A stretch of DNA of 63,648 nt, counting the filler. It is 8 parts of 8 records of this genome, joined end to end, with 100 filler letters (N's around TTAATTAATTAA, not from the genome) between each part and the next. Parts side by side here need not be neighbours in the genome. Positions count along the whole stretch, not along the records: positions 1 to 7,254 come from SRR31156797_68407; 7 more parts are not named here. One strand, written 5' to 3'. Below the pieces are notes generated by a model. The model ran no database searches. It saw only the letters and a list, made by a program, of their open reading frames with translations, and was not told the DNA's origin. Position 1 is the first letter of the stretch; every line of letters starts with the position of its first letter. Position numbers and translations under genes: made by a program. Shown here piece by piece: positions 1 to 30,922 of this stretch.

Positions 1-2
1 CA

Positions 3-3000
3 AGTAATAATGGCACAGCCAAAAAAACGGTGAAAGTAAAGGTGTTGAGTGCGCCTGAAATCCTTCCCGCGGGCTCATTCGGCAGCAATTATCAGGAATT
101 GGTTCCTGAAGATGCCACACTTGAGGCCTATGATACCCGCAGGTTCGCCTTAATGACAGGACTGGTAACGGATACTGATGGGGCTGTGCTCCAAGGGGTA
201 TCTGTTATGGTTAAAGATCATCCGGAATACGGCACCGCAGAGACAGACAGTGAGGGGCAGTTTTCCATTCCTGTGGAAGGTGGTGGGCATCTGACCCTGA
301 TCTATGAAAAGCAAAACATGATTACTGTTCACAGAAAGGCCTACGTACCATGGAACGATTATGTTGTTCTTGATACGGTGCAGATGACTGCTGAAGATAC
401 CGCCTGCACAACAATTGCATTTGACGGAAATCCCTCCACTGTGTTTACCCATCAATCAACCCCTGTTGAAGGGGAGGAGGGTACCCGCTTCGTAACAATG
501 GTTATGACGGGAGATAATCTGGCCTATCTGATTGATGAAAACGGTAACGATATACAGGCACTTTCTACCATCACCACCAGGGCCACTGAATTCATCACAC
601 CTAAATCCATGCCGGCAGTATTGCCGCCCACTTCTGCCTTTACTTACTGCTCAGAACTAAGTGTTGATGGTGCCCAGAGAGTCCGATTTGAAAAACCGGT
701 GATCACCTGGATAGATAACTTTCTGGGCTTTGATGTGGGGGAACCTGTTCCGGTCGGCTACTATGACCGTGATAAAGGTGTCTGGGTGCCATCTGATAAC
801 GGCACTGTCGTTATGCTTTTAGATACTGATGGTGATGGGATCACTGATGCCTTGGACGCTGACGGTGATAACCAGCCTGATGATCTCAATGGTAACGGTT
901 CATTCACCGACGAGGTGACCGGCCTGGAGGACCCCACCATATACATACCCGGCACAACCTTCTGGCGGGTTGCCGTTTCTCATTTTACCCCCTGGGACTG
1001 CAACTGGCCCTGGGGTCCGCCACAGGATGCCATAGAGCCAAATCCTAAAAGAAGGCCTGATGCAAATCAGGATGAACTGCCCTGTTTCATAAAAGGGACC
1101 CTGGTGAAAACCGGCAACGGATTACAACCGATTGAGACAATAGTAAAAGGAGACTTTGTGTTTTCAAGGGATGAAAACACAAATCAGACACTTTTACGCA
1201 AAGTAACCAACACTTTTATCACTCAGGATCAAATTGTTTATGAACTGAAATTTACTAATCCGGACGGCACTACAGAGACCATAGGCGCAACGCCTCGGCA
1301 CCCATTCTGGGTAAAAGGCAAAGGCTGGATTGAAGTTCAGGAGTTAAGTTTAGGTGATGGTGTTTATCGACTTGATGATAAATGGATGCTTTTGGCTTCA
1401 ATTAGGCCATTATCTGATAGGCAAACCGTTTATAATTTAGAAGTTGAGAATTTTCATACATACTTTATCGGCAGGAACAGCATCTGGGTACACAATGCCT
1501 GTTCAAACAGTATACATCCCAAAAAAAGAACGATTGATTATGATATTCCCGTCCCCGGAACCGGTATAACCTTTCATTACGCCAGCAGTCGGGTTGAAGG
1601 TTATAAAAATGTGATTACTATTCCTGCCAGCGGAGATACCGTTCCTGGAAGCCTAAAACGAATTATTGTCAGAATGAAAATTGCAGGTAGGAGTTTTGAA
1701 ACAACTTTTGATCCTCTGCCCAACCTGAGGGCAGAATTTGTATGGGATGGGCTCGATCATATCGGCACTCGGGTGAGCGCCTCGACCAATGCGCATATCA
1801 GCATTGGGTTTGAATATGACATAGTCTATTACCGTGCATCATCAGATGCTGAGCAGGCATTTGGCCAGTTTGGGGACACAGCCTCTTTAATTCGTGGCCG
1901 GGAAAAGATGGTTTCATGGAAACGATCTGTTTTGACCATAACGCCAAGCGCGAATACTCTTGCTGAAAGCGGAGGGCTACTTGCACACGGGTGGACATTC
2001 TCCCCTCATCATTTCATACATCCCGCAGCACCTTCAATAATTCAAAAGGGGAACGGAGCAACAAGTGGAAAATTCAACGGTATAATTACCACTGTTGCTG
2101 GTAATGGCAGAAAGGGGTCTATCTACAACGTTGGTGATGGGGACCCTGCTAGTCAGGTTTCTTTAACCTCCCCTTGTGGTATTAGTGTGGATGCTATAGG
2201 GAATTTATATATTGCCGATACAAAACAAGCTCGTATCCGTAAAGTGGATACCAATGGTATCATTACAACCATAGCCGGTCGTGGCGTCGGGGGTAGTAGT
2301 GCTGATAAGCTAAACTTCCCTTACGATATTTGTCTGGATTCATCAGGCAGCCTTTACATAAACGACCTTGGAAATAATCGAATTCGCAAGGTAGATACCA
2401 ACGGTATTATCACCACCGTGGTCGGCGGGAATGGTTATGGCTACAGTGGTGACGGCGGGCCGGCTATATTAGCTAAGATATATCAACCTCATGGTATTTG
2501 CCTGGATTCAGCTGGTAACCTTTATATTGCGGACTCTTGGAACCATCGCATTCGTAAAATAGATACCAACGGTATTATCACCACTGTGGCTGGAACCGGA
2601 GATACCGCAAACGAGGACGGGGAAACTGCGTTTGGAGGCTATAGCGGCGACGGAGGGCCTGCGGTACTGTCCGAACTTAATAATCCAATGAATATGTGTA
2701 TGGATTCAGCAGACAATTTATATTTTGTAGACGCCAACAATAATTGTATTCGCAAAATAGATACAAGTGGGATTATCACCACTGTAGCAGGCAGTGGAAG
2801 TCTTGGCTATGATGGCGATATGGGGCTTGCAACACAAGCAACGTTTAGGTACCCTTCAGATGTTTTTGTGGATCCAACAGGAAATCTTTATATTGCAGAC
2901 TCAGGAAATGATTGCGTTCGCAAGGTGGATCAAGATGGTATTATCACAACAGTAGTCGGAAATGGAAACAAAGGTTATAGTGGTGACAGCGGGCCTGCAA

Positions 3001-6000
3001 TATTATCGGAACTTCTCAACCCCCAAAGCATATATATGAATTCGGAAGGCAGCCTCTATATTACAGACTTCAATAATTATTGTGTCAGAAAGGTTGATTA
3101 TATTTATAATTCTAGTGTGTTAAATGGAATCAGTTTCCCTGAAAAAATCGGTATAGAGCATGTTATGTCCAATCTCGGTCAACATGAGATCACCGTTGAC
3201 CTTGCTACGGGGATTACCTTGCGTGAATTCGGTTATGATGAAATTAATAATCTGACAACCATAACGGATCAATTTGGCAACCAGATTTTAATTCACAGGG
3301 ATATGAACGGAACGCCAATCTCTATTACCTCGCCTGACGGAATAGTGACAACTCTGACCATAGATGCTGATAATAACCTTACGCAAATCACCTACGAAGA
3401 CGGCAGCACCTATGATTTTGAATACACGCCTGAGGGCCTTATGACCAAGGTAATCGAACCTAACGGAAACCGATATGAACATGTTTTTGATCAAAATGGC
3501 AGATTAACGGATTTCCTGGATCAGGAAGGAGGTGACTGGAATTACACCCGGACCTATCAGGAAGGGGATATTCTTTCCGAAATTCGCACTGCCGAAGGTA
3601 ATCTGACCAGTTACCTGGATCAAAATTATTCCACAGGCGCTTATGACTCCGTAGTCACCGATCCGTCAGGCTCCCAAACCCTGTTTTCCAAATCCTCTGA
3701 CGGTCTTACAATGGATAAATCAAGCTCCTGCGGTAAAAATGTAGAGTTTAAATACGATTTGGATCCGGAATACAAGTTTCAGTATATTAAGCAAATAACG
3801 ACGTCAACGTCCTCGGGTTTGCTTAAAACGACTGTTAAAGATAAAACCTACCAGGACACCGACTCAGATGAAGTACCCGATCTCATTATTGGTACCATGA
3901 CCGTTAACGGTAAAACTTCAATTATTGAACATAATACGCTTTTATCTCAAAAAATATTCATATCTCCTGAGGGACGAACCACAAACGTGAAGTATGATCC
4001 CGTAAACCTATTGGCAAATTCCGTTAGTGTACCCGGGCTTTTTGATACGGAATACAGCTATGATTCAAAAGGACGCTTGAACTCTACAACCATCAACGCA
4101 AGAAATATGTTCTTTTCTTATAATTCCCAGGGATTTATCGACTCAATAACAAATCCTGAAGGTCATATCACAAGCTATGATTACGACCTGGTGGGTAGGG
4201 TGACCGGAGTTGTCAGACCTGACGGAACCTCGTTGGCCTTTACCTATGACGGTAACGGAAATATGACCGCCTTTACCAATCCGACATCCGTAAGTCATAC
4301 ATTCAGCGCCAACAGTGTGAATCGGCCCGGTTCCTACACAACCCCCTTAAGCGGTTCTTACAGCTATTCTTACGATAAAGACCGTCAACTCATACAGATC
4401 GGATTTCCTTCGGGGGAGAATATTTTCAATGCCTATGAAAATACCAACCTGATCCGGACAGTGACTCCTGAAGGAGATATTGATTACACATATATTTGCG
4501 GATCTAAAATAGAATCCGCTGAAAAAGACGGAGAAAGCATCACCTGGGGCTATGATGCCAACCTTGTTACATCAGAAAGCATGACAGGCACTCTAAACCA
4601 GGAACTGACCTATACCTACAACAATGATTTCAATGTGGAATCTTTTAATTATGCCGGAGTAGCCTTATCATTTGCCTATGATAACGATGGGCTTTTAACC
4701 GGTTCTGGCAATTTCACCATTGCCCGAAATACAGACAACGGTCTGCCGGTAGCCGTTTCAGGCAATGGATTTTTTGAATCCCGCTCTTTTAACGGGTATG
4801 GCGAACTTGAATCTAAAGAAAGCAAGGTAAACTCAAAGTCGGTTTTCTCCTGGAATACCGTCCGCGATAATAATGGCCGCATCATTTCCAAAACCGAGAC
4901 CATCCAGAGTCAATCAACCCAGTTCTCCTATGAATACGATGAAATGGGACGCCTTGTGGCTGTCAGCAAGGATGGAGAGGTTGTTGAGTCATACACTTAC
5001 AATACAAACGGTTCCCGCATATATGAAACCAATACCTTAAGGAATATAACCGGCCGGGCAGCGGATTACTCTGACGAGGACCACTTGTTGCTCTCCGGTT
5101 CAATCACCTATAATTATAATTTTGACGGCTTTTTGACCGCCCAAAAAAATGGTGCGGAGCAGACCTCTTATACCTATTCCTTACGGGGAGAATTGTTACG
5201 CGCAATCCTGCCCGACGGCAAGCGAATCGAATATATACACGACCCCCTTGGCCGGAGAATTGCGAAGAAAATCAACGGCGGGATCACGGAAAAATACCTC
5301 TGGCAGGGCCGGACCCGTCTGCTTGCCGTATATGACGGCAACAACAGCCTGCTGATGAGATTTGAATATGCAGACGCGCGTATGCCGGTTTCTATGACAA
5401 AGGGGGGGAGCATATATTACCTGGCTTATGATCAGGTGGGTTCCCTTAGAGCCGTTACAGATGTGTTCGGCAATGTGATAAAGAAAATTGAACATGATTC
5501 CTTTGGGAATGTTATCAATGATACTGATCCTGGCTTTGAGGTCCCCTTTGGTTTTGCAGGCGGGTTGTATGATACGGATACCGGCCTGATCCGGTTCGGA
5601 CACAGGGATTATGATCCTGATACCGGCCGGTGGACTGCTAAAGATCCTATTTTCTTTGCTGGTGGGGATACTGATCTTTATGGGTATTCCCTCAATGATC
5701 CTGTTAATTTGATTGACCCTCTTGGATTATGGGGGGTTGATATTGGTGGGACACTTATGGGTGCGGATTTTTCAACAACTATTTATGATTCAAATAAAGG
5801 TTGGTTCCCAAGCACTAAAACTAATATTGGGGCTTCAACTACTGCCTTTGGCAGTGGTATCAAATTCACCTTTGATGATCCTTGCGGGTCAGCAAAGAAC
5901 AATGATAGCGACCTAATGGTAAGCTGGGGCCTTAGCAAATACTTGGGGCTTTCTTATAGTCCTGATTTTTTTCGTAAAAGTATTAATTTAGGATTAGGTT

Positions 6001-6089
6001 TGGGCCTCCCTGTTTCATTCAGTTCTTCTGTCGAAAATTTTGCTAAAGGTATTGGCAAAGGGGCTGAAAAAATATTTAACGCAAAATAA
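3..6089 (+). CDS. Teneurin-like RHS/YD-repeat protein, 5'-truncated: carboxypeptidase-regulatory-like N-region, DxDxDG Ca-binding loops, internal Hint domain, NHL propeller, YD shell, RHS core, variable C-terminal tip
   Basis: Frame is open from the window edge (SNNGTAKKTVKVKV), so the GTG at 30 is probably not the start. About 6 NHL repeats (GIITTVAG..GDGG..GNLYIAD..IRKVD), many YD repeats, and RHS core PFGFAGGLYD..RDYDPDTGRWTAKDPI..DPVNLIDPLGL. Confidence 0.93.
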   Translation, partial: SNNGTAKKTVKVKVLSAPEILPAGSFGSNYQELVPEDATLEAYDTRRFALMTGLVTDTDGAVLQGVSVMVKDHPEYGTAETDSEGQFSIPVEGGGHLTLIYEKQNMITVHRKAYVPWNDYVVLDTVQMTAEDTACTTIAFDGNPSTVFTHQSTPVEGEEGTRFVTMVMTGDNLAYLIDENGNDIQALSTITTRATEFITPKSMPAVLPPTSAFTYCSELSVDGAQRVRFEKPVITWIDNFLGFDVGEPVPVGYYDRDKGVWVPSDNGTVVMLLDTDGDGITDALDADGDNQPDDLNGNGSFTDEVTGLEDPTIYIPGTTFWRVAVSHFTPWDCNWPWGPPQDAIEPNPKRRPDANQDELPCFIKGTLVKTGNGLQPIETIVKGDFVFSRDENTNQTLLRKVTNTFITQDQIVYELKFTNPDGTTETIGATPRHPFWVKGKGWIEVQELSLGDGVYRLDDKWMLLASIRPLSDRQTVYNLEVENFHTYFIGRNSIWVHNACSNSIHPKKRTIDYDIPVPGTGITFHYASSRVEGYKNVITIPASGDTVPGSLKRIIVRMKIAGRSFETTFDPLPNLRAEFVWDGLDHIGTRVSASTNAHISIGFEYDIVYYRASSDAEQAFGQFGDTASLIRGREKMVSWKRSVLTITPSANTLAESGGLLAHGWTFSPHHFIHPAAPSIIQKGNGATSGKFNGIITTVAGNGRKGSIYNVGDGDPASQVSLTSPCGISVDAIGNLYIADTKQARIRKVDTNGIITTIAGRGVGGSSADKLNFPYDICLDSSGSLYINDLGNNRIRKVDTNGIITTVVGGNGYGYSGDGGPAILAKIYQPHGICLDSAGNLYIADSWNHRIRKIDTNGIITTVAGTGDTANEDGETAFGGYSGDGGPAVLSELNNPMNMCMDSADNLYFVDANNNCIRKIDTSGIITTVAGSGSLGYDGDMGLATQATFRYPSDVFVDPTGNLYIADSGNDCVRKVDQDGIITTVVGNGNKGYSGDSGPAILSELLNPQSIYMNSEGSLYITDFNNYCVRKVDYIYNSSVLNGISFPEKIGIEHVMSNLGQHEITVDLATGITLREFGYDEINNLTTITDQFGNQILIHRDMNGTPISITSPDGIVTTLTIDADNNLTQITYEDGSTYDFEYTPEGLMTKVIEPNGNRYEHVFDQNGRLTDFLDQEGGDWNYTRTYQEGDILSEIRTAEGNLTSYLDQNYSTGAYDSVVTDPSGSQTLFSKSSDGLTMDKSSSCGKNVEFKYDLDPEYKFQYIKQITTSTSSGLLKTTVKDKTYQDTDSDEVPDLIIGTMTVNGKTSIIEHNTLLSQKIFISPEGRTTNVKYDPVNLLANSVSVPGLFDTEYSYDSKGRLNSTTINARNMFFSYNSQGFIDSITNPEGHITSYDYDLVGRVTGVVRPDGTSLAFTYDGNGNMTAFTNPTSVSHTFSANSVNRPGSYTTPLSGSYSYSYDKDRQLIQIGFPSGENIFNAYENTNLIRTVTPEGDIDYTYICGSKIESAEKDGESITWGYDANLVTSESMTGTLNQELTYTYNNDFNVESFNYAGVALSFAYDNDGLLTGSGNFTIARNTDNGLPVAVSGNGFFESRSFNGYGELESKESKVNSKSVFSWNTVRDNNGRIISKTETIQSQSTQFSYEYDEMGRLVAVSKDGEVVESYTYNTNGSRIYETNTLRNITGRAADYSDEDHLLLSGSITYNYNFDGFLTAQKNGAEQTSYTYSLRGELLRAILPDGKRIEYIHDPLGRRIAKKINGGITEKYLWQGRTRLLAVYDGNNSLLMRFEYADARMPVSMTKGGSIYYLAYDQVGSLRAVTDVFGNVIKKIEHDSFGNVINDTDPGFEVPFGFAGGLYDTDTGLIRFGHRDYDPDTGRWTAKDPIFFAGGDTDLYGYSLNDPVNLIDPLGLWGVDIGGTLMGADFSTTIYDSNKGWFPSTKTNIGASTTAFGSGIKFTFDDPCGSAKNNDSDLMVSWGLSKYLGLSYSPDFFRKSINLGLGLGLPVSFSSSVENFAKGIGKGAEKIFNAK
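1083..1496 (+). other. Hint domain (pretoxin-HINT / A-type BIL-like, 138 aa) inside the RHS protein
   Basis: Starts CFIKGTLV, block B TPRHPFW (TxxH), block F VYNLEV..HTYF, ends WVHN; the next residue is Ala. Confidence 0.9.
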
Positions 6090-6107
6090 ATTAATGGAGC
6101 ATTTCGA

Positions 6108-6326
6108 TTGCACTTATATGAAATATTTTTTTGGGCTGGGCTAATATTTTTAGTTTTATGTTGTTGTTGCATTGCTGTAATCGGTATAAAAAACAGTGTG
6201 TTTGGCGGGACTTATAGTTCGCCTATGAATGAGTTACCACCTTTTGATGTAAAACTATTGAAACTTGCGGGAATTTTATTTCTTATAAGCATATTATTTT
6301 TTATAATTGGTTTCTTTTTACAGTAG
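6108..6326 (+). CDS. Small 2-TM membrane protein, putative cognate immunity protein
   Basis: Starts 18 nt after the RHS stop, GGAG upstream, two hydrophobic helices, AT-rich. Confidence 0.7.
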   Translation: MHLYEIFFWAGLIFLVLCCCCIAVIGIKNSVFGGTYSSPMNELPPFDVKLLKLAGILFLISILFFIIGFFLQ

Positions 6327-6671
6327 CGAGCCACAAATAGGCCTTTTTAAGCCACATTGGTAAAAATTTTTCGTGACTTCGATCAAACCTTGATTTTTGC
6401 CCTTAAGCCTTCAAAGTGGCCAGTCAATTTATACTTCAGGATCTACTATTATAAATGCAGTAAATGGTAATCATGCCGTCGGAGCTCAAGGATTTTTCAG
6501 TGGGGGATTCGGGGTCGATTCTACATGTAAATAGCGGTCAACTGATTGTTTTTCGTTTGATTTATAAAAATCCGGATCAAACCCGGATGAATTTTTAATC
6601 TTTGTTATGGGCAAACCTGGATGAAACGCCAGGTCTGCCCATGGCAGTTATTAGAACTGTGAAGGATTTAA

Positions 6672-6872
6672 ATGCTTGACATCATTTTTCCAATTTCATT
6701 TGTTTTATTCGCAATCTTTTTTTTAATTCTTTCGAACAGTAAAAAAAATTATCGAAAATTAGTCGAAAACAACAATGAAGAATTTGCTAAAAAGGTGAAC
6801 AAGGGCCTTAAAATATGCGCATCCCTATTGTTGATTTGTTCATTTCTTTGGGTGATAATCACTTTTATATAG
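6672..6872 (+). CDS. Small 2-TM membrane protein, putative orphan immunity protein
   Basis: AAGGA RBS; two hydrophobic segments around a charged loop; lies downstream of the RHS locus. Confidence 0.6.
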   Translation: MLDIIFPISFVLFAIFFLILSNSKKNYRKLVENNNEEFAKKVNKGLKICASLLLICSFLWVIITFI

Positions 6873-7145
6873 CAACTCTAAATCAGATAGAAAATAAGAG
6901 GAGCTTTGGACTATTATCTGATTGGTAGTTTTTCAACCTTTTTGGATAATTGTTCCAGTTGCTGGCATCCCTCAAGATGGGGACTATAAAGCGCTTACGC
7001 TTCTATGGCAAAAACGACCTTAGGAATGAGCACGAAATAAGATGCCCAATTAGAATTTTCAAACGTACGGCCTACAGTGGTCACCTGTTTTGAAATAAGC
7101 AAGTTATTTAAGACTCATTCCTTAGCGCTAAAGATAATCCTGGAA

Positions 7146-7178
7146 AAAAGGGGATAATCAATAGATTATCCCCCTTTT
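7146..7178. terminator. Probable intrinsic terminator
   Basis: Inverted repeat aaaaggggataatc / gattatccccctttt with A and T tails. Confidence 0.65.
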
Positions 7179-7254
7179 ATTTTATATATGCCGCGAAGAA
7201 TGGCGCTTCCCGGCTTAGCACTTATTTAATTATACAGCGGTTATCCCTTGAAGG

Positions 7255-7354
7255 NNNNNNNNNNNNNNNNNNNNNNNNNNNNNNNNNNNNNNNNNNNNTT
7301 AATTAATTAANNNNNNNNNNNNNNNNNNNNNNNNNNNNNNNNNNNNNNNNNNNN
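7255..7354. other. Artificial contig linker
   Basis: 44 N + TTAATTAATTAA + 44 N. Confidence 0.98.
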
Positions 7355-14924: not shown

Positions 14925-15024
14925 NNNNNNNNNNNNNNNNNNNNNNNNNNNNNNNNNNNNNNNNNNNNTTAATTAATTAANNNNNNNNNNNNNNNNNNNN
15001 NNNNNNNNNNNNNNNNNNNNNNNN
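14925..15024. other. Artificial contig linker
   Basis: 44 N + TTAATTAATTAA + 44 N. Confidence 0.98.
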
Positions 15025-20067: not shown

Positions 20068-20167
20068 NNNNNNNNNNNNNNNNNNNNNNNNNNNNNNNNN
20101 NNNNNNNNNNNTTAATTAATTAANNNNNNNNNNNNNNNNNNNNNNNNNNNNNNNNNNNNNNNNNNNN
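20068..20167. other. Artificial contig linker
   Basis: 44 N + TTAATTAATTAA + 44 N. Confidence 0.98.
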
Positions 20168-20233
20168 TGATCGTGCGCAGAGGTAAGCGCAGACTCCAGG
20201 TAAGAGCAGACTCCGTGGGGTGCTGCTATACAG

Positions 20234-20479
20234 TTACGGTTTACGAACAAAATCAGACAGCTTAGGAGGGGTAACACAAAAGCCGCTCATGCAGTCACCA
20301 ATGGAATTTATCTCGGCATCTTCCAGATCTACCAGCGCCAGCACCACCGCTTCCAGGGTAGCTCCCGCAAATTCACCCTCTCGAGAAAACCAACCTTGAT
20401 TGTCGGTATAAGCAAAGTGCTGTTCGACGTATGCCTGCTGTTCTTCGTGTGTTTTATCAATAAACTTACCGGAGTACAT
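20234..20479 (-). CDS. Hypothetical protein (81 aa)
   Basis: AAGGTG upstream of ATG; plausible protein composition. Confidence 0.5.
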   Translation of the reverse strand: MYSGKFIDKTHEEQQAYVEQHFAYTDNQGWFSREGEFAGATLEAVVLALVDLEDAEINSIGDCMSGFCVTPPKLSDFVRKP

Positions 20480-20675
20480 GAAACACCTTTCAGCATAGGA
20501 AAAATTAACAGTAAATCATTATCGCATTCGACATTGTATTGCCCATCAGGTTCTGTGCAACATTACTATTCCAGGAACCGCCGCAGATTCCCGGAATAAT
20601 AGGTAGTTTTTTACAGCTTCCCCGGCTTGCTTGTCCCGACAAACCATATCTCAGGTAGGCCCACCAATAACAGCC

Positions 20676-22046
20676 TCAGGACTGTAAACGATAGCAGGGT
20701 GAATAAGAGGTCGTTGCCAGCTTCATCCTTCCGGCATCAATAAAATCGGAAAGCAATTGATCCAGGGGATCCATGATCTCGCAATCCCCCTGCAACTCAA
20801 ATAATCCCTTTTCCTCAATGGACCTGATTCCTGCATCTTTCACATTTCCGGCCACAATCCCCGAAAAAGCCTTTCTTAAATTAACAGCCAACTGATATTT
20901 CTTCTGATCCATGGAAAGGTTGAGTCGGCTCATGCTTTCATGGGTAGGCACAAATGGGCTTTGGAAATTGTGATCAATATGCAGTAACCAATTGTAATAG
21001 TAGGCGTCATCATTGAGTTTACGAAATTGGCGTACCCGCTCAATTCCATCTTTCACACTAAGGGCAACCTTTTCCGGATCATCAATGATTATTGTATATC
21101 TTTCCTGAGCCTCTGGTCCCAGAGTGGCCCCAATAAATGCATCAATCTGTTCAAAATATGGAGCAGCACTTTCTGGTCCAGAGAAAATAACAGGAAACGG
21201 TAGATGCATATTCTGCGGTGCCATCAGAATACCTAAGAGGTACAAAATTTCTTCTGCAGTACCAACACCTCCGGGAAAAACAATTATCGCATGCCCAGTG
21301 CGTACAAATGCCTCCAGCCGTTTTTCGATATCCGGCATAATCACAAGTGCGTTCACAATGGGGTTAGGTGATTCAGCGGCAATAATGCCGGGTTCGGTAA
21401 TACCGAGATACTGTCCAGTGTAATTGCGCTGTTTTGCATGGCCGATTGCAGCTCCCTTCATCGGCCCTTTCATTGCCCCTGGTCCGCATCCGGTACAAAT
21501 ATCCATACCACGGAGGCCCAGTTGATACCCTACTTCCTTGGTGTAATCATATTCATTTTCAGGGATGGAGTGACCACCCCAGCAGACAACAAGACGCGGA
21601 TTGGTGCGCGGCCGCATAATATTAGCGTTTCTAAGAATATGAAAAACGGCATTGGTAATATCGCCGGAAGCATTGAGATCAAACTTAGGATTGGTGTTGA
21701 TCTCATCATCTACATAGATAATGTCGCGGAGCACGGCAAACAGATGCTCTCTAATGCCTCTGATCAACTCACCGTCTACAAATGCATTTTCGGGTGCATT
21801 GAGCAGGTTAAGCTTTATGCCCCGTTCTTCCTGGATAACACTGATGTCAAAACTGCTGAAGCGCTCAAGCAGCTCTTTCCCATCATCAAGATATTCACCG
21901 TAATTCAGTACAGCTAGCGAACAACTACGAAAAAGAGGGTAAAGGTCCCCCCTGCTGGTATCGAGCAGTTTACTGATTTCTAACCGCGATAATACATCCA
22001 GATGCCCGTTTGGGGAAATGCAGGCATCCATTACAGACTGACTCAT
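20676..22046 (-). CDS. ppnN: Nucleotide 5'-monophosphate nucleosidase PpnN (YgdH, LOG family)
   Basis: ISPNGHLDVLS..LFRSCSLAVLN N-terminus, VVCWGGHSI, TGCGPGAMKGPMKGA, PGGVGTAEE; 456 aa. Confidence 0.93.
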   Translation of the reverse strand: MSQSVMDACISPNGHLDVLSRLEISKLLDTSRGDLYPLFRSCSLAVLNYGEYLDDGKELLERFSSFDISVIQEERGIKLNLLNAPENAFVDGELIRGIREHLFAVLRDIIYVDDEINTNPKFDLNASGDITNAVFHILRNANIMRPRTNPRLVVCWGGHSIPENEYDYTKEVGYQLGLRGMDICTGCGPGAMKGPMKGAAIGHAKQRNYTGQYLGITEPGIIAAESPNPIVNALVIMPDIEKRLEAFVRTGHAIIVFPGGVGTAEEILYLLGILMAPQNMHLPFPVIFSGPESAAPYFEQIDAFIGATLGPEAQERYTIIIDDPEKVALSVKDGIERVRQFRKLNDDAYYYNWLLHIDHNFQSPFVPTHESMSRLNLSMDQKKYQLAVNLRKAFSGIVAGNVKDAGIRSIEEKGLFELQGDCEIMDPLDQLLSDFIDAGRMKLATTSYSPCYRLQS

Positions 22047-22689
22047 AAATTTTCCTACTTAATAAATTTGGTGTGTCTAAAAGCAACAATGCTCTTTTGG
22101 GGAATTTCCTTTCCATCAGTGTCAACAGAACCTCGAAGTTCATCTTATCACAAAGATTTGAAGGAAAAAGAAATTTTCCAGCAAATGCCTCATCCTGGCT
22201 CCAATATTCTTGATCCTGGAGCTATTGCATAGCATACCGTGACCCGGTTGTTGTCACCTTACAAAAGCTCTATTTTCATATCAAAAAAATCCAATGAGGC
22301 TTTGGTTAGGGTGTTCGCTTCCTCTAGGTGCAATGGCACTCTGTTCTTGTTGTCACAGTTTGTCCATTTTCTGAACACCTAAGCCAAAAAACAAAACCGA
22401 CTAAAATTTTTAATTGTTGGGACACAAGGGGTTTCTGAGAGTTACAAAAAACACCTTGATTATGGGAGTTTCAATGTTGTAATTGATTACTAGTACATAA
22501 AAAAAATGCAACCAACCCAATACCAACAGAAACAAACCGAAAATAACCACAAAGAACATCTCAGACAAAAAGAAAGACTCAATTTCAAACGGCTCTCTGA
22601 GCTGAAGCGTTGCTTCTTAACCTGACATTTCTGTCCATTCATGAATGTGGATTTGTACAGCCCACATCAATCGTAAGAGGATTTTCTGC

Positions 22690-24942
22690 ATGAAAGAACT
22701 CGTTACTTGTTCCAAAATAGCTCCTTATCAAGCGTCTCTCTTCGTAGCTATGGTATTGGCCGTCACCAGCTTCACCGACCGTGCAGTAGCAGTAAATTAT
22801 GAATACGATGCTCAACATCAGTTAGTACGAGTCATCTATGACAATGGTGCGTACCTAAATTACACATATGACCTCAATGGTAACCGTGTACAAATGATCA
22901 CCAGTGGCGCTGTTCGTGCAACCTATGAAAACGGGGAACACATGACCACCAAGGGCTGGGACATTTATGACAAAGATCCTGTCGGGGCTTCCATAGCCAA
23001 CATATTTGATGAGGAGAGTGGCAGCAGAGTCATTGAGTTTACAGGCAATACAACTAAGAATGGATATAGACTCAGAAAGGCAGACAGCACTAACTGGAAT
23101 GAGCAAAACTTTAAAGTGCTTGAGTGGAACATACGATATTCGGAAAACTTTATTATCTACATTGCAGTACAGACCACCGACGGCTTTCGTTACCTTTACT
23201 ATACCACTGCTGAAGAAGATAAACTTGGAGAGAGCACCTATATCCATCACGGACTTGGCCCTTCCTTCAAAGACGATAACTGGCACTCTGTTATCCGTCA
23301 CCTTGAGTATGATCTAAAAGAGGCTCAACCAGATAATACCCTCATATCCATTGACGCTTTTCTTATACGCGGCAGCGGCAGAGTCGATGATATCAAAGCA
23401 CACAATTTTATTCCAGAATCCCTGGACTCTGACCAAGATGGTATCTCTGATCTGGAAGAAATTAACACCTACACTACGCATCCCTACCATGCCGACTCAG
23501 ATAATGACGGCCTCACTGATTTTGAAGAACTCACCTACTGGGGAATCAACTGGAACAGCGATCCGGATGGCGATTCATTAAGCAACCTCCTCGATCCTGA
23601 TGCTGATAACGATGGAGTTAAAGACAGTTTTGAAGTGCAGGCAGGAACTGACCCTGCTGACAGAGAATCACTTCCCCAGGCAATTACCCTTGAAGATGCT
23701 GAAGACCACAATGCCATGGGTTGGCAGATTTATGATGACACCCCTATCGGCGCTCTTATCAACAATGTATTTGATGAACAAAAAGAAAGCCAGGTCATTG
23801 AATGCATTGGCAGCCAAACAAAAAATGGCTACCGACTGAGAAATCAAGACGGCAGCGATTGGGATATTAATTACTTCAAGGTGCTTGAGTGGAGCATGCG
23901 ATATACTGAAAACTTTATCATCTACGTTGCAGCTCAGACCACCGGGGGCTTTCGCTACCTCTACTACACTACGTCAGATGAGGATAAACTGGGAGACGGG
24001 ACCTACGTTCATCACGGGCTGGGTAAATCCTTCAAAGATGGTAATTGGCAGACCGTTATCCGAGATCTGGAGTTTGACCTAAAAGAAGCGCAGCCAGACA
24101 ATGAACTCATCGCCATAGACGCTTTTCTCATTCGCGGAAGCGGCAGAGTTGATGATATAAAAGCATACCATTCCATTCCAGCTCTCCAGGATTCAGACCA
24201 TGACGGGATTTCAGACCAGGATGAAATTACCACATACACAACTCACCCCTACCATAACGATTCAGACAATGACGGCCTTACAGACTCTGAAGAACTTACC
24301 TACTGGGGAACTAACTGGAACGATGATCACGACGGAGACTTCCTGATAAACATTCTCGACCCAGATGCTGATAACGATGGAATTAGCGACTATTTTGAAG
24401 TGCAAGCTGGAACTGATCCGGCTGATGCAGAGTCAAGTCCACAAGCTATTACCTTTGAGGATGGCGAAGACACAGATCTCAAAGGCTGGCAGGTTTATGA
24501 CAACAATCCTGAAGGTGCTGCCATCACCAATGTATTTGACGAACAAAAAGAAAGCCAAGTCATTGAGTTTAACAGTAATGGAACAAAAAATGGGTTCCGG
24601 CTCAAAAATGAAAACGACAACTACTGGGACAATCAGAGCTTCCCTGTACTTGAATGGAAAATGCGCTACACCGAAAATTTCGTCATCTACTTTGCCGCCC
24701 AAACTACTTATGGATTCAGATATCTTTACTACACTCCTGCTACGGAAGATAAACTGGGGGACACTACCTATATCCATCATGGGTTGGGTAGTTCCATACT
24801 TGACGGTAACTGGCACACGGTGAACCGCGATCTGGAATATGACCTGAAAGAGGCACAACCCGACAATGATCTTCTCTCCATTGATGCCTTTCTCATCCGT
24901 GGCAGCGGCAGGATCGATGACATCAAGGCATATCGTAAGTGA
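22690..24942 (+). CDS. Secreted protein: short YD repeat, three copies of a ~165-aa beta-rich domain, and two TSP3-like DxDxDG Ca-binding linkers
   Basis: AAGAGG RBS before ATG 22690; signal peptide ..DRAVA; YEYDAQHQLVRVIYDNGAYLNYTYDLNGNR; internal repeats. Confidence 0.85.
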   Translation: MKELVTCSKIAPYQASLFVAMVLAVTSFTDRAVAVNYEYDAQHQLVRVIYDNGAYLNYTYDLNGNRVQMITSGAVRATYENGEHMTTKGWDIYDKDPVGASIANIFDEESGSRVIEFTGNTTKNGYRLRKADSTNWNEQNFKVLEWNIRYSENFIIYIAVQTTDGFRYLYYTTAEEDKLGESTYIHHGLGPSFKDDNWHSVIRHLEYDLKEAQPDNTLISIDAFLIRGSGRVDDIKAHNFIPESLDSDQDGISDLEEINTYTTHPYHADSDNDGLTDFEELTYWGINWNSDPDGDSLSNLLDPDADNDGVKDSFEVQAGTDPADRESLPQAITLEDAEDHNAMGWQIYDDTPIGALINNVFDEQKESQVIECIGSQTKNGYRLRNQDGSDWDINYFKVLEWSMRYTENFIIYVAAQTTGGFRYLYYTTSDEDKLGDGTYVHHGLGKSFKDGNWQTVIRDLEFDLKEAQPDNELIAIDAFLIRGSGRVDDIKAYHSIPALQDSDHDGISDQDEITTYTTHPYHNDSDNDGLTDSEELTYWGTNWNDDHDGDFLINILDPDADNDGISDYFEVQAGTDPADAESSPQAITFEDGEDTDLKGWQVYDNNPEGAAITNVFDEQKESQVIEFNSNGTKNGFRLKNENDNYWDNQSFPVLEWKMRYTENFVIYFAAQTTYGFRYLYYTPATEDKLGDTTYIHHGLGSSILDGNWHTVNRDLEYDLKEAQPDNDLLSIDAFLIRGSGRIDDIKAYRK
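22920..24939 (+). repeat. Intragenic tandem repeat, period 765 nt (255 aa), about 2.6 copies
   Basis: GSGR(V/I)DDIKA codons at 23371, 24136 and 24901. Confidence 0.9.
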
Positions 24943-25038
24943 AGACTCGATGTTACGTATCTTTGATTCAGATACATCCCTTTCATCCGACAAAAAGCTT
25001 ATCAGCGCCCATCGGTAACTTTAACACACTTAACCAGC

Positions 25039-25707
25039 ATGAATAAACATATAATGACGTCCATCAAAACCTTGACAATCACAGGCATGCTTATCCTAAC
25101 CACTCTCACACAAAATACTTACGCCGATTGCAGTTGTACCATTGGGAGCAATTACATTTCCGTGATTGGCATGGAGTTCTCAGCAGTATCATGCCCACCG
25201 GAAGGTTTATCCCATACAAACACGACCACAAGTATCAGGTACCTGAGTGATCCTATCAAATGCGCTGGTTCTTCTCCCTATAAAATTACTTCATACGGTG
25301 ACACTGACCTGCCCCCAGCCCTCATAATCAGCTATTACCAAGGGCAAGGCTACAAGATACTCACTAATCCAAGCGGGACGCATATAATCGCTGTGCATAA
25401 AAATTTCAGAGGAAAAATGGCGGGGAAAGCTGTAACCGCTATTTCCCTAGACAAGGCGTATGTCAGTGAGGATCTCAATCAATACTGTACCAGTCCCAAC
25501 CAGTTAGCAGACGCAGACAGCGATGGGTTTCCCGACTGCCTGGACTGTTCTGCGGATGATCCTGAACAATCTATCAACTGCCCGACCTGTACCGCAGAGC
25601 ATGCTGCATTGATAAAAACATGTGCAGGTGAAGACAAAATAGCTGCATTTGATAACGACGCCTGCAGCGGCTACTGCAAAAGCAACGGCGCTCCTGTCTG
25701 TCGTTAG
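25039..25707 (+). CDS. Secreted cysteine-rich protein (222 aa)
   Basis: Signal peptide ..QNTYA; about 13 Cys; DADSDGFPDC motif; ends KSNGAPVCR. Confidence 0.75.
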   Translation: MNKHIMTSIKTLTITGMLILTTLTQNTYADCSCTIGSNYISVIGMEFSAVSCPPEGLSHTNTTTSIRYLSDPIKCAGSSPYKITSYGDTDLPPALIISYYQGQGYKILTNPSGTHIIAVHKNFRGKMAGKAVTAISLDKAYVSEDLNQYCTSPNQLADADSDGFPDCLDCSADDPEQSINCPTCTAEHAALIKTCAGEDKIAAFDNDACSGYCKSNGAPVCR

Positions 25708-25769
25708 CCAGCTGTTACACCTTAGGCTGTAGATTATGTAACCAAAACCTCAACATCCTACAACTGACT

Positions 25770-28700
25770 ATGAATACATTGGCTACTGTAAAAAACTGTT
25801 GCCCCGCTCTTCTCTTAGCTGTACTGAGCCTCTTCTCTGCGCTGCCTGCAAGCGGATCCCCCCTGCCGTATCTTTTCACTCACCAAGTCAACTTTGGCAC
25901 CGGAAACAAATACCATCAGGAACGTGACATAACGCTCACAGGACCGGGGCTTCCCCTTTCCTTTAAACGTACCTATAACAGCCAGAGCACTGAAGATTCT
26001 GCCATGGGGTATGGTTGGTCTGCCAATATTACAGAACAACTCATTATTACAGCTGAGACCATACACCTCCTTCAAGCTGACGGGCGGATGGTATTTTTCA
26101 CGGACCTGGGAGAAACAAAATGGGTATCGGTAAACGGTAAAGAACGAATAATAACCAAGAAAAACGATGGCTACCAGTTGCAGGAGCCAAATGGCTACCT
26201 GAAAAATTATAACAACAGTGGTCATTTGACGAGCGTCACCGATACCAATAATAACACTTTAACCAACTCCTATTCCGACAGTAAGTTGGTCTCAATAACC
26301 ACCAATTACGGACAAACCCTTTCCTTTACCTATACAGGAGAAAAACTGAGTTCAGTTCTGGCTCCTACCGGTACGTTTTCCTACACCTACGATGCCAACG
26401 ACAATCTCATAGCAGTTTCAAAGCCTGATGGATCGTCCATCCACTACATCTACGACGATCCCAATGATGTACACAACCTGACAGGCCGATTAGATGAAGA
26501 AGGCAGACGCAATATCACTGTATCGTATGATGCAGAGGACAGAGTGGTAAATGCTGCTCTCATGGGTGGGCTCAAGTCGGTAAGTATTCATTACAACACT
26601 CCTTGGGAAAGAACGGTAACAGACAGCCTGGGCAACCTTACCACCTACGCATTAAAAGCTCATAACGGCGAGGTCATAATTGATCATTTCACTGGTCCCG
26701 GCTGTTCATCATGCGGTTCATCCGCCGATACAGCTTATACCTTTAACAATCGCCTCCAGGTCAGTACCGCAACTGACGCAAATGGCGTCAGTACAGGGTA
26801 CTCATATGATGAACAAGGAAATATACTTACAAAAACTGTCGCCCAGGGTACTCAGGTAGAAAGAAAAACAACCCGAACCTATACTGTTGCTAACAAGATC
26901 AACAGCATTTCTGAACCTTCAATTGCCAATCCCGGCGCACAAAAAACGACCACATTTATTTATGATCCCCAGCAGAACCTAACGAGCAAAACAGAAAGCG
27001 GCTACTCCGGCTTAAATCCGATTTCCAAGACCACCACCTTTTCTTATAACAACTATGGCCAGCTCATTGCTGTTGATGGGCCAAGAACCGATACCAATGA
27101 TACGATCACCTCAAGTTACTACCCGAATGAGCAAGAACAGGGTAACAACCGAGGAGAATTGCACACTCTAACCAATAGCCAGGGCCATACCATTACCTAT
27201 GGTGACTACACCGTATTTGGTACTCCAGCGACGATCACCGACGCTAACGGGATCGTTACCACCCGCACCTACGACATAAACAATCGCCTTCTTGAAATTA
27301 CCACCAATGGGCGAACTACCAGCTACAACTACAATGCAGCAGGTGATATCACCATCATTGATCTCCCAGGAAACCACACCATTACCTACTCTTATGCCCC
27401 AACAGGGTTACTCGAAAAAATCACCGACCAAGGCGGCAACAGCATCCGTTACACCTACAATAGCGAAGGGAAAAAAATTGGGGAACAGATACATGACCTG
27501 GACGGGAATGTAACCAAATACTCAGCATTCGAGTACAACGACGCTGGAAAACTCAGCAAAATACTCCTCCCCGGACCTGCTGAACAATCAGCGGCCTATG
27601 ACATAGCGGGAAATATGGTGGAAACCATAAATGCCACTGGGCTCCATACTACAATGGAATACGATCCACTTAACAGGCTAATGAGCGTGGCTAAAGCCGG
27701 AGCAAACGCTGGTTATATATACGATCAAGCTGACAATCTCACTCAATTCACCGACCCCAAAGGCCACATCACAACCTTTACCTATGACGATTTTGGCAGA
27801 AAAATAAGCCGCACAACTCCTGACACTGGAATTATATATTATAGCTATGACAATGCTGACAACCTCACCAATTCGATTGATGCGCTGGGAAGATCCATTG
27901 ACTACAGTTATGATAGCTTTAACAGACCAACCCAAAGAATATATGACAGCATTCTTGAAACATACACTTACGATACAGCCACAAACGGCATTGGTCACCT
28001 TGCAGCAATAACAGATGAACACGGTACCCGATCCCTGCAGTACAACAGCTCAGGTCAACACACCACAGATTCCCGCTCAATCAACGGTACATCATTCACC
28101 ACCTCATACCATTGGAATAATGAAACAGGTGAACTCAGTGCCCTCACCTATCCCAGTGGTATGGTAGTGGAATACAATAGAAATGATAAAGGCCAGGTAG
28201 AATCTCTTACTGTCGATGGCCATACCATTGTAGACGCTGTAACACATATGCCATTCGGGCCACTGAAAAGTGCTACCTTGGGATCGACAAATCTTGATCG
28301 AAACTTTGACCAACGCTACAACATGACTTCCATCACAGCCGGTTTAATGCAATACACCTATATCCGCGACGCAGAAGGGCACATTATAGGTATAGATAAT
28401 GTGCCAACGCCTACAGTTCCATCAGATTCCACAACCTACAACTATAAGGAAGGAACAAATCAAGTTAACAGCCAAACAGGCAACTCACCCAAAACCTATA
28501 TTCATGATTCGGTCGGCAATATTATTTCAGATGGCACCTTCGACTTTACCTTTGACGCCCTCAACAGACTAACCGAGGTAAAACAAGGAGAAACCATCAT
28601 TGCCAGGTATGGGTATGACACAGAAAATAGAAGAATCTATAAAACAGCGGTTAGTGAAACTATACTTTACCACTACGACATAAACGGCCTGCTTATAGCT

Positions 28701-29423
28701 GAAACAGGTTCGGATGGGACTCCGTTACGAGAATACATCTACCTCGACAATGAGCCTATTGCACTCAACGAGTATGAAAATAATCCTGGCACCTATTACT
28801 ATCTCAACGATCACCTTGGAACTCCCCAGCAATTGATAAATGATACGGGTTCTGTTATGTGGCAGGCAAAGTACCTACCGTTTGGAAAAGCTCAGGTCAG
28901 CATAGAGTCTATTACCAACAATATCCGTTTTCCGGGCCAATATTACGATAGTGAGACAGGGTTGCATTATAACTGGAATCGGTACTATGATCCGAGTACC
29001 GGAAGGTATATCTCAGCTGATCCGGTTGGAATACTTCCTCATGGACCGGAAGGAGGACTGAATCACTTGTATACTTATGTCGGTGGCGATCCTATCAATT
29101 GGTATGACCCCGAAGGACTTTGGAAGTGGGGCTTTGGAGGAGTGTTCGGTCCTGCTAATGTTGGTTGGCATTCAGATGAACCGACTATGACTCAGTTCTC
29201 ATTTTTGACTGATCTTGAAATCGGAGGAGGATTTTTCATATGTTTTGATAATCCGTTCTTAGATGAGTGTGAAGATCCAAAGAGAATGCCATTTGATATT
29301 AATATCGGAACGGGCCAATACACCGGTATTTCGTCAGATGGACAGACAATGTGTGTCAAGATAGGCCTGTCGGCTGGATTCACTCCAATTGATATATCTT
29401 CTAAGCCAATGCCAAGGAATTAA
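25770..29423 (+). CDS. RHS repeat protein with signal peptide, DUF6531-like N-domain, RHS core and 100-aa C-terminal tip
   Basis: Hydrophobic leader; VNFGTGNKY..LSFKRTYNS..GYGWS; YD repeats; [40 protein letters not shown]. Confidence 0.93.
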   Translation: MNTLATVKNCCPALLLAVLSLFSALPASGSPLPYLFTHQVNFGTGNKYHQERDITLTGPGLPLSFKRTYNSQSTEDSAMGYGWSANITEQLIITAETIHLLQADGRMVFFTDLGETKWVSVNGKERIITKKNDGYQLQEPNGYLKNYNNSGHLTSVTDTNNNTLTNSYSDSKLVSITTNYGQTLSFTYTGEKLSSVLAPTGTFSYTYDANDNLIAVSKPDGSSIHYIYDDPNDVHNLTGRLDEEGRRNITVSYDAEDRVVNAALMGGLKSVSIHYNTPWERTVTDSLGNLTTYALKAHNGEVIIDHFTGPGCSSCGSSADTAYTFNNRLQVSTATDANGVSTGYSYDEQGNILTKTVAQGTQVERKTTRTYTVANKINSISEPSIANPGAQKTTTFIYDPQQNLTSKTESGYSGLNPISKTTTFSYNNYGQLIAVDGPRTDTNDTITSSYYPNEQEQGNNRGELHTLTNSQGHTITYGDYTVFGTPATITDANGIVTTRTYDINNRLLEITTNGRTTSYNYNAAGDITIIDLPGNHTITYSYAPTGLLEKITDQGGNSIRYTYNSEGKKIGEQIHDLDGNVTKYSAFEYNDAGKLSKILLPGPAEQSAAYDIAGNMVETINATGLHTTMEYDPLNRLMSVAKAGANAGYIYDQADNLTQFTDPKGHITTFTYDDFGRKISRTTPDTGIIYYSYDNADNLTNSIDALGRSIDYSYDSFNRPTQRIYDSILETYTYDTATNGIGHLAAITDEHGTRSLQYNSSGQHTTDSRSINGTSFTTSYHWNNETGELSALTYPSGMVVEYNRNDKGQVESLTVDGHTIVDAVTHMPFGPLKSATLGSTNLDRNFDQRYNMTSITAGLMQYTYIRDAEGHIIGIDNVPTPTVPSDSTTYNYKEGTNQVNSQTGNSPKTYIHDSVGNIISDGTFDFTFDALNRLTEVKQGETIIARYGYDTENRRIYKTAVSETILYHYDINGLLIAETGSDGTPLREYIYLDNEPIALNEYENNPGTYYYLNDHLGTPQQLINDTGSVMWQAKYLPFGKAQVSIESITNNIRFPGQYYDSETGLHYNWNRYYDPSTGRYISADPVGILPHGPEGGLNHLYTYVGGDPINWYDPEGLWKWGFGGVFGPANVGWHSDEPTMTQFSFLTDLEIGGGFFICFDNPFLDECEDPKRMPFDINIGTGQYTGISSDGQTMCVKIGLSAGFTPIDISSKPMPRN

Positions 29424-29425
29424 GA

Positions 29426-29629
29426 ATGAATGAACTGTTTGCTGTTATCTCAGGCATAATTTCTGGTGGTTGTTTATTCATAATCGCCGTACGATCAGGG
29501 ATGCCATTGTTTGGGTCAGTTATTTCAAAGGAAGCAAAGAAGAAACTAGACCCACTAGATAAAATACTAGCTTTAGTAGCACTGGTATTCTTTTGTATTT
29601 GCATGATGCTAGTCGTAATGACGTACTAG
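29426..29629 (+). CDS. Small 2-TM protein, putative cognate immunity protein
   Basis: Starts 2 nt after the RHS stop; two hydrophobic helices. Confidence 0.7.
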   Translation: MNELFAVISGIISGGCLFIIAVRSGMPLFGSVISKEAKKKLDPLDKILALVALVFFCICMMLVVMTY

Positions 29630-29745
29630 TTGCTATCGCTAATGATGTCGCGTAATCTCCGGTCTGGAATATCTAAGCAGGAGAGTGTTCTTTGACATAA
29701 CCTCCTCTTGAAGAAAAACAGCTCTTTAGGGGGAGAAGGCGTATC

Positions 29746-30390
29746 GTGATATTGCCGGGCCAATATTACGATAGTGAGACTGGGTTGCATTACAACTGGC
29801 ATCGCTACTACGACCCGAACACTGGAAGATATATAAGCGCTGACCCAATAGGACTTCAAGGTAGAATGAATTTGTATGCTTATGTAGGTGGTAACCCAAT
29901 TAACAGAATCGATCCAATGGGACTTATGTATTATCCAGATGTGGTTGGTGATACAAATATTGGTTTCGCTCAAGATTACATTGATGGAAGTACTATCGGC
30001 GGCGGTGTCGGTGGTGGGGTGCATTTATGGGGAGCAGGTGTGTATGGACACCAGCATGTCCAATGTGGTGCTGGAGGGTGTTACTCAGTAACTACTGTCT
30101 GCGGAAGAATCGGACCAGGAATGTATATTGGTGGTGGGACTGAAGGCGCTGGAACCATAGGCCCACAATCAGATGATATTAATCAAGAATGCGAAGAGAA
30201 ATCTTGTACTGAAACTTGGTCAGTTGGGCTTGGTGGAGATATCGCTGTCGGTAACGAAGGTGGAGGTGTTTCCGGCGGGGTTGGGCCTTCTGGATTATCT
30301 GCTGGAGGAAGTTTCAGATCGCCTGTAAGTGCTGGGTTCGGAGCTTCTGCTGGTGTAGATGTATGTTATATCAAATCTTGTCCACTATAA
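29746..30390 (+). CDS. Orphan RHS cassette: core fragment plus Gly/Cys-rich alternative C-terminal tip
   Basis: [32 protein letters not shown] then 154 aa; 26 nt (29755-29780) identical to 28932-28957 of the main RHS gene. Confidence 0.85.
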
Positions 30391-30404
30391 CTGGAAGCAA
30401 GTAA

Positions 30405-30680: not shown

Positions 30681-30845
30681 TTAGAATTTCAGTTTTTTTT
30701 TAATAACGACAATAATCTATGCAATGCACCGGCTTACACCACCATGAACGAACCATCAGTAAAATTACACGACTATGTCCGTTGTAGTACAGGTAAATGA
30801 AATTGGACCAACCAGGCAGCTTTGACCAATTCGAAAATCATACTG

Positions 30846-30876: not shown

Positions 30877-30922
30877 TAATCACAATTGTTTCCGGTTCAT
30901 CCGGTAAACGCGTACTTTTCAG

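Follow-up and report, generated by a model that had tools for sequence, protein, structure and literature searches.

What do the glycine-rich C-terminal tips of two RHS proteins do, each followed by a gene for a very small membrane protein, and do the two pairs share an origin? The question is raised by a window of 63,648 nucleotides (the whole stretch of DNA that was analyzed, along which all positions are counted), in which tip 1 and the two-transmembrane-segment (2-TM) protein Imm1 occupy 5730–6326, and tip 2 and the 2-TM protein Imm2 occupy 29121–29629. The window is made up of 8 contigs with N spacers between them, and a sequence-only reading had proposed that these pairs, lying on separate contigs, are homologous members of a mobile, membrane-acting toxin family. 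The motifs and coordinates that it quoted are all present, the coordinates exactly so, and the spacers do place the pairs on separate contigs, at 1–7254 and 20168–30922 (the fourth contig). We find that both regions are best explained as toxin–immunity cassettes of one previously undescribed polymorphic-toxin family, whose toxicity we infer. As to how the tip would act, we put the chances about evenly for and against a non-enzymatic, membrane-directed toxin that is neutralized in the membrane by the 2-TM protein.

At locus 1, all on the plus strand, the frame comprising carrier 1 and tip 1 is cut at its 5′ end by the window, encodes more than 2019 aa and ends at 6089. Carrier 1 (3–5714) is a teneurin-like RHS/YD-shell protein with the Pfam domains TTR_TEN1-4, PT-HINT, FN-plug, TEN_NHL, TEN_YD-shell and RHS_repeat. 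It runs into the motif DPLGL (5715–5729), read from the sequence as the end of the RHS core and its autoproteolysis motif, and then into tip 1 (5730–6089; 119 aa plus stop), a Gly/Ser-rich putative toxin domain supported by homologue searches and an AlphaFold2 model. Imm1 (6108–6326; 72 aa), the probable cognate immunity protein, opens with a TTG start 18 bases past the tip 1 frame, with GGAG (6096–6099) 8 nt upstream of the TTG, and its hydropathy profile shows two hydrophobic segments. Locus 2, also on the plus strand, has the same order. Carrier 2 (25770–29105) has a signal-peptide-like N-terminus, DUF6531 and RHS repeats, and ends in DPEGL (29106–29120) as the RHS core gives way to tip 2 (29121–29423; 100 aa), for a protein of 1217 aa in all. 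The frame of Imm2 (29426–29629; 67 aa), likewise with two hydrophobic segments, opens 2 nt after the tip 2 stop. The Pfam assignments thus agree with the earlier statement that the carriers differ greatly, one being teneurin-like and the other a DUF6531-RHS protein with a signal-peptide-like start.

We compared the tips both directly and through their relatives. Taken alone, the two are only weakly similar (BLASTP 19.2 bits, E 0.008, 24/87 identical), and a profile of 8 tip-1-type tips (A1) matched tip 2 alone at an hhalign probability of 39.8% (E 3e-4). A search with tip 1 returned 7 RHS proteins among 268 candidates (E 2.5e-50 to 3.6e-32); a search with tip 2 returned one match among 71 candidates, P0010, its closest relative at 91% identity. 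We then scored tip 2 with a hidden Markov model (HMM) made from the 53 other rows of a 54-row family alignment (A2), cut to the tip columns with tip 2 excluded. This leave-out HMM gave tip 2 39.1 bits, an E of 3.1e-14 for one sequence, which arithmetic converts to ~6e-5 at whole-library size; 1000 shuffles of tip 2 averaged -2.8 bits and peaked at 6.7, so that the similarity survives a control for composition. Intermediates also connect the two: P0050 matches the tip-1 profile at E 1.9e-10 and tip 2 at 41.6 bits, and P0073-75 share a WKWG-type start with tip 2. BLASTP, hhalign and MAFFT each reproduced the pairing of motifs that had been proposed. The sequences make a strong case that tips 1 and 2 are distant homologues, as had been claimed; it is the family information, HMM and intermediates, that settles the matter, the pairwise evidence being thin.

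The downstream proteins were approached in the same way. Imm1 and Imm2 alone show no significant similarity (BLASTP E 0.41), and the Imm1 family against Imm2 alone gives a weak hhalign result (probability 20.4%, E 1.1e-3). A profile of 10 downstream genes (A3) identified 39 relatives of 57–78 aa among 2079 candidates, none of the 39 with a Pfam family. The Imm1-family HMM scores Imm2 at 18.4 bits, a value reached by none of 1000 shuffles of the whole sequence (maximum 8.8) and by none of 1000 shuffles in which the loop and the two hydrophobic segments stayed separate (maximum 13.6). A natural intermediate is found at L026, from a Desulfobacterales genome, where a tip-2-like tip is followed by a 69-aa protein that reaches 42.5 bits with Imm2 and 23.0 with the Imm1 HMM. 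These scores, the segment-preserving shuffles and the intermediate uphold the match that had been noted between the downstream genes. There is a good case from sequence that Imm1 and Imm2 are distant homologues that diverged together with their tips, although it is less secure than that for the tips, since proteins of this sort have short sequences and a biased composition.

We next consider how widespread the family is and what carries it. The A1 profile, run against 1.84 billion representatives, matched 71 clusters (50% identity) at E≤1e-3, of which 39 passed E≤1e-10 and 11 passed E≤1e-30; one of the 71, P0065, looks spurious (a repeat protein matched over 5 stretches, E 0.3 against tip 1). 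The domain is C-terminal in all 79 family sequences, with a median of 4 and a maximum of 45 residues after it. A DPxGL-type motif lies no more than 45 aa upstream of it in 54/79; 13 further records are truncated at the N-terminus and 12 have longer or different linkers. The carriers that we typed are teneurin-like proteins, DUF6531-RHS proteins, an SpvB/TcdB-mid/FG-GAP-RHS fusion and a Peptidase_C39-RHS protein. The tip moves between carriers, every one typed being an RHS/YD shell, and the proposed mobility of the family is borne out by this occurrence of one toxin-domain family on at least four kinds of unrelated RHS carrier. In a sample of 401 genomes from the order that contains a Desulfobacula metagenome-assembled genome with a tip 90% identical to tip 1 (L001/G001), 10 matched at E≤1e-3; for the other 391, not found is not to be read as absent.

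The tips matched no Pfam or NCBIfam family at E≤1. Across 54 members, only RHS-core families of Pfam and NCBIfam matched at E≤0.01, with no toxin family (Ntox/Tox) among them. Against PDB sequences, the best hit of the tip-only profile A1 has an E of 0.39, and the A2 profile matches only through its RHS-core flank (RHS, teneurin and Tc structures). A characterized family to which the tips belong came up neither in Pfam or NCBIfam nor in PDB sequences; the absence of nuclease, deaminase and ART signatures, which the sequence-only reading had remarked on, is supported by the Pfam and NCBIfam searches and by the residue conservation described below. A description of the family was not found in the literature searched. 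The ESM Atlas returned unnamed clusters together with Met_gamma_lyase (0.91) and Ntox25 (0.83), which we take as noise or as leads only.

Is the small downstream gene a regular companion of the tip? In the first 16 related loci, a relative of Imm1 (69–77 aa) lies directly 3′ of the tip in 12, some of which duplicate one another. L015 and L016, whose tips are 44–46% identical, have a different two-segment protein of 81–83 aa in this place, and at L006 and L008 the sequence ends before a downstream gene could fit. Ten further loci (L019–L028) extend the picture, apart from L023, which runs out of sequence, and L027, a broken copy. The protein downstream at L019 is an Imm1/Imm2 relative (48.4 bits), whereas the one at L020 is only weakly related (8.2 bits). 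Another two-segment family, of 76 aa, is encoded at L021 and L022. Divergent tips are followed at L024 (1835–2152) and L025 (1836–2153) by a 105-aa membrane protein with Cys-x2-Cys pairs, and at L028 (reverse strand, 1863–2192) by a protein of 109 aa that has hydrophobic segments and, at its N-terminus, Cys-x2-Cys. The paired motifs of these three proteins, which replace the plain 2-TM protein, are zinc-ribbon-like. In nine Desulfobacterales loci beyond the first 16, the membrane proteins after intact tips span 55–109 aa and several sequence families.

Every locus that extends far enough thus has a small membrane protein after the tip, the family of which changes with the tip subtype. This joint change fits direct recognition of the toxin. 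The small 2-TM protein is probably the cognate immunity partner of the tip, its function being assigned from context; the expected partner of ~70 aa with two transmembrane segments is indeed paired with the tip across loci and diverges together with it. Could the tip instead serve the shell as a structural plug or in adhesion, the small open reading frame (ORF) being unrelated to it? We find this hardly credible: the position after DPxGL is exactly that of RHS toxins, the tip is swapped among carriers, orphan tip-plus-membrane-protein cassettes follow in arrays, and the small gene keeps its position while changing in sequence along with the tip.

We then turned to the structure of the tip. With the 54-row A2 alignment, AlphaFold2 gave a model of pLDDT 85.8 and pTM 0.70 (five models, pLDDT 74.8 to 85.8), with strands in tip 1 at residues 2–9, 12–20, 31–36, 40–49, 63–69, 72–76, 82–91 and 95–100 and a helix at 101–118. 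Every strand alternates between hydrophobic residues and Gly, Ser, Thr, Asn or Asp, in keeping with the amphipathic beta-strands that had been proposed from the sequence. The monomer is predicted to be a closed eight-stranded barrel with a small and polar outside, and the strand pattern would put the hydrophobic residues on the inward face that such a barrel buries. The amphipathic C-terminal helix occurs in only about half of the members. Columns conserved at ≥80% are G41, G43, G67, G88 and P94; those conserved at 60–80% include D13, Y19, G24, S36, T37, T38, K70, Y71, L72 and G73, and also S84, N86, G90, G92 and S98. The family alignment contains no conserved His, Cys, Glu or Arg, and no catalytic-type residue is conserved.

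The model was compared with known structures in two ways. The top four rows of a Foldseek search against the PDB are R. equi VapB, VapD and VapG (E 0.076–0.15, TM 0.34–0.44). VIA-align, which is independent of Foldseek and covered 48,161 representative chains, returned 3 chains at Z≥5 (scores under 8 may signify no more than a common arrangement): VapG (Z 5.6, rmsd 3.4 Å, 90 aligned), VapB (Z 5.2, rmsd 3.2 Å, 88 aligned) and a Brucella COG5400 barrel (Z 5.0). OprF and OmpA scored Z 3.0 and Z 2.9, respectively.

These data bear on whether the tip could be a beta pore-former. As modeled, it is not a membrane-spanning barrel, and because the predicted barrel is closed and polar-surfaced, pore formation would need refolding or oligomerization. 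The released hairpins could turn inside-out and several copies could assemble a membrane-spanning barrel, the Gly/Ser/Thr/Asn face lining the lumen. The strict alternation of hydrophobic and small polar residues in all eight strands, two of which have 10 residues, speaks for such a pore, and the tip would leave the RHS shell unfolded, which makes an alternative fold conceivable. Yet the AlphaFold2 prediction of a closed barrel for the monomer is a confident one, the strands are mostly of 5–9 residues, short for spanning a bilayer, and the OmpA and OprF barrels are among the poor matches, so we regard a pore of this kind as quite unlikely.

A tip directed at membranes would have company among RHS proteins. 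In bacterial teneurin-like and RHS cassettes, as here, a tip follows the DPxGL of the shell, carriers are exchanged and a small gene comes next. Raoelijaona et al. (Nat Commun 2026, PMC13018210) report that nearly all bacterial teneurin-like genes have a small downstream gene, and that the C-terminal domain of a B. inaquosorum teneurin-like protein permeabilized E. coli only with a signal peptide, i.e., when sent to the periplasm. An "outer-membrane-protein-like" C-terminal class appears in that paper with two tested examples, from D. oleivorans and P. oryzisoli, which were not toxic in the E. coli cytoplasm, growth being like that with the empty vector (PMC13018210, Fig. 3b source data). The sequences and the immunity genes of these two domains differ from those of the tip family. 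A motif search of the readable supplements of PMC13018210 detected neither GVSTT nor KYLG among the tips in its alignments, where gaps could hide motifs.

How would the toxin reach its target? Neither carrier shows PAAR or VgrG features. The homologue of carrier 1 with the 90% identical tip, in G001, is a protein of 2428 aa with a signal-peptide-like N-terminus, in which Ig/cadherin/PKD/PASTA domains precede the teneurin-like part. Since the carriers have signal peptides and lack PAAR and VgrG, delivery is probably Sec-dependent and extracellular, judging from their sequences, and a Sec-dependent, extracellular route is also proposed for bacterial teneurin-like proteins (PMC13018210). The type VI secretion (T6SS) sheath protein TssC is present in 3/4 tip-carrying genomes examined; for the same reasons, we did not assign delivery to the T6SS.

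Toxins that act on membranes and are paired with membrane proteins offer a second comparison. Pore-forming colicins have membrane-embedded immunity proteins, and the C-terminal fragment of the Pseudomonas aeruginosa pore-forming Rhs toxin Tse5 (Tse5-CT) is helical. Ionophoric toxins of contact-dependent inhibition (CDI) combine a polymorphic toxin with a small integral-membrane immunity protein (PMC11630599), and the pairing of tip and 2-TM protein resembles that of CDI toxins and colicins; these toxins, however, are hydrophobic and helical, whereas the tip is modeled as a polar-surfaced beta-barrel, and no sequence or fold relation between them was found in Pfam, the PDB, Foldseek or VIA-align. 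The RHS shell of Tse5 delivers its encapsulated C-terminal fragment to the target membrane, where the fragment depolarizes the cell (PMC10684867), a logic of delivery and target that is the same as the one proposed for the tip; Tse5 is a T6SS effector, whereas carriers 1 and 2 lack PAAR and VgrG and belong to proteins with Sec signal peptides. EsxX is described in PMC12744356 as a helical glycine-zipper membrane toxin. From such toxins (Tse5-CT, EsxX and CdzC-like), the tip would differ in being all-beta in its model, with no long hydrophobic segment and one amphipathic helix in place of hydrophobic transmembrane helices bearing GxxxG zippers.

The best fold matches in both of the independent searches were the Vap proteins of Rhodococcus/Prescottella equi (VapA/B/D/G). 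They are closed barrels of ~100 aa with eight strands, among them conserved glycine-rich ones, as the tip is predicted to be. An animal pathogen secretes the Vaps as virulence proteins that stand alone, in contrast to the tips, which are RHS cargo with probable immunity genes. In Vap proteins, the C-terminal strand is rich in glycine and a conserved Trp comes after it (PMC4118825); in the tip, P94 and a further strand come after the Gly-rich one (G88, G90, G92), and no Trp near the C-terminus is conserved. The VapD surface, glycine-rich and "bald", binds octyl-glucoside (PMC4118825), and VapA is membrane-active and neutralizes vacuole pH (PMC10100859). By size, strand number and glycine-rich strands, the resemblance of the tip to the Vap barrel is suggestive, and we do not file the tip as a Vap member; the 54 family members gave no match to the Vap Pfam model (PF05526) at E≤0.01. 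We also noted a local likeness between the Vap C-terminus (NFFDS.G..LG…GGVST..GIGGG) and residues 3–43 of tip 1 (IYDSNKGWFP…IGVSTTLIGGG), in its N-terminal half, which is not significant (hhalign probability 2.9%) but could conceivably point to a circular permutation.

Two further readings touch on the Vap comparison. In one, the barrel would bind a specific inner-membrane protein or a lipid-linked cell-wall precursor and jam or sequester it instead of acting on the bilayer, and the 2-TM protein would join or shield the complex. A closed barrel with a conserved small-residue surface and no catalytic residues fits a binding module, the immunity proteins are embedded in the membrane, and VapB-type barrels have been likened to avidin and proposed as binders (PMC4089522). 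The cassettes, though, come without a linked gene for a candidate receptor, and the immunity sequences vary by tip subtype, as expected for recognition of the toxin and less so for shielding of a conserved receptor; on this evidence, we hold a receptor-dependent toxin to be unlikely, if worth keeping in sight. In the other, the Vap-type glycine-rich barrels would be an ancient membrane-perturbing class, first used between bacteria, and the tip would leak protons across the target cytoplasmic membrane without a classical pore, in the way put forward for VapA in the phagosome, which strikes us as a doubtful idea and rates no higher than a beta pore.

For the membrane-directed toxin that we weigh at about even chances, the following course can be sketched. 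Cleavage of the tip after DPxGL and its carriage in the shell are established for RHS proteins, and from its place after this self-cleavage site, we take the tip to be packed inside the RHS/YD shell and released from it. The motif being present here, the tip would be cut after DPxGL, carried in the shell and released at the target, where it is predicted to fold into a small closed barrel. The barrel may then dock on the target cytoplasmic membrane through its bare Gly/Ser/Thr/Asn surface, aided by the amphipathic helix where present, and disturb the membrane barrier, so that membrane potential or the proton gradient would be lost. Docking and dissipation are suggested by the lack of catalytic residues, by partners that are membrane proteins, by the likeness to Vap and by Tse5 and the B. 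inaquosorum teneurin-like domain as precedents. The inner-membrane protein of 67–72 aa would recognize the toxin subtype that belongs to it, at the membrane or inside it, as the co-variation of tip and membrane protein suggests.

Several observations weigh against this course. The first concerns the model: with 8 close homologues, AlphaFold2 failed to fold the tip (pLDDT 32.7), and the fold therefore rests on one deep-alignment prediction. The Vap likeness is weak, since a predicted model was compared and Z scores of 5.2–5.6 may reflect a common arrangement; Foldseek had 0 matches at E≤0.001 in the PDB, and the tip against the six Vaps of pVAPA1037 reached hhalign probabilities of 2.9% (A2) and 0.13% (A1), so that their sequence profiles show no similarity. 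The polar outside of the predicted barrel makes a breach of the bilayer hard to explain. Over 39 Imm1-family sequences, K+R residues average 5.36 in the loop that joins the two segments, against 0.46 N-terminally and 0.49 C-terminally. By the positive-inside rule, this conserved loop would be cytoplasmic, which would leave almost nothing of the protein exposed to the periplasm and is awkward for a toxin arriving from outside. Lastly, D13, K70 and N86 are conserved at 70–75% and could serve an unrecognized activity.

The last two points would suit a cryptic enzyme that acts in the cytoplasm or at the inner leaflet, the K/R-rich immunity loop being its inhibitor, and many RHS tips are cytoplasmic enzymes. 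We nonetheless consider an enzyme very unlikely: no His, Cys, Glu or Arg is conserved, Pfam and NCBIfam offer no match, neither Foldseek nor VIA-align shows an enzyme fold, and a filled barrel of ~100 aa would leave little room for an active site.

RHS/teneurin-like toxins and membrane-targeting tips with membrane immunity proteins are both known kinds. What is new is the toxin family and its all-beta build, as predicted; the RHS toxin–immunity cassette as a kind is not. The family stands apart from those described in being unannotated, moderately widespread (71 clusters) and, by its model, a small polar-surfaced beta-barrel instead of hydrophobic helices. If the tip acts on membranes, it would represent a new physical way to breach a bacterial membrane; if the resemblance to Vap is real, it would provide a simple system for how such barrels work. 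Should the tip truly belong to a Vap-type membrane-perturbing class, the cassettes would be a genetically tractable bacterial model for the long-unexplained Vap mechanism, in which the co-evolving 2-TM proteins would show which face of the barrel meets the membrane. Two diverged toxin–immunity pairs in one bin, together with the L026 intermediate, are ready-made material on specificity.

The window itself is a binned draft. Its spacers (N runs around ttaattaattaa) lie at 7255–7354, 14925–15024, 20068–20167, 30923–31022, 43200–43299, 49014–49113 and 56432–56531. The tip 1 contig has a GC content of 0.432 and the tip 2 contig 0.444, within a spread of 0.387 to 0.628 across the contigs; given this spread, the bin may be mixed. 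In a draft of this kind, the two contigs may come from different cells or organisms.

Other genes accompany the two loci. At 6672–6872, ~350 bp 3′ of Imm1, a 66-aa ORF encodes a two-segment membrane protein with a weak, sub-threshold DUF4064 match. At 2.9 bits with the Imm1-family HMM, it was ruled out as a relative of Imm1; it could be an orphan immunity gene. Directly 3′ of tip 2 and Imm2, an orphan RHS core end (…DPMGL) at 29746–30390 leads into a Cys-containing tip of 154 aa with 26% glycine, followed at 30405–30680 by a 91-aa membrane protein. This third Gly-rich tip was ruled out as a family member (-0.9 bits, inside the shuffle range), as was the 91-aa protein as an Imm1 relative (-2.5 bits). 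Gly-rich orphan tips also come after family members in L015, L016 and L021, without similarity to the one at 29746–30390; it seems a recurring theme that unrelated Gly-rich tips and their membrane partners are strung together in arrays. Upstream of carrier 2, 22645–24942 encodes a 765-aa protein with one RHS repeat, three glucuronyl-epimerase-type beta-sandwich repeats and bacterial TSP3 repeats, and 25039–25707 encodes a Cys-rich protein of 222 aa with a signal-peptide-like start and no Pfam match; both genes may be accessory parts of the RHS system.

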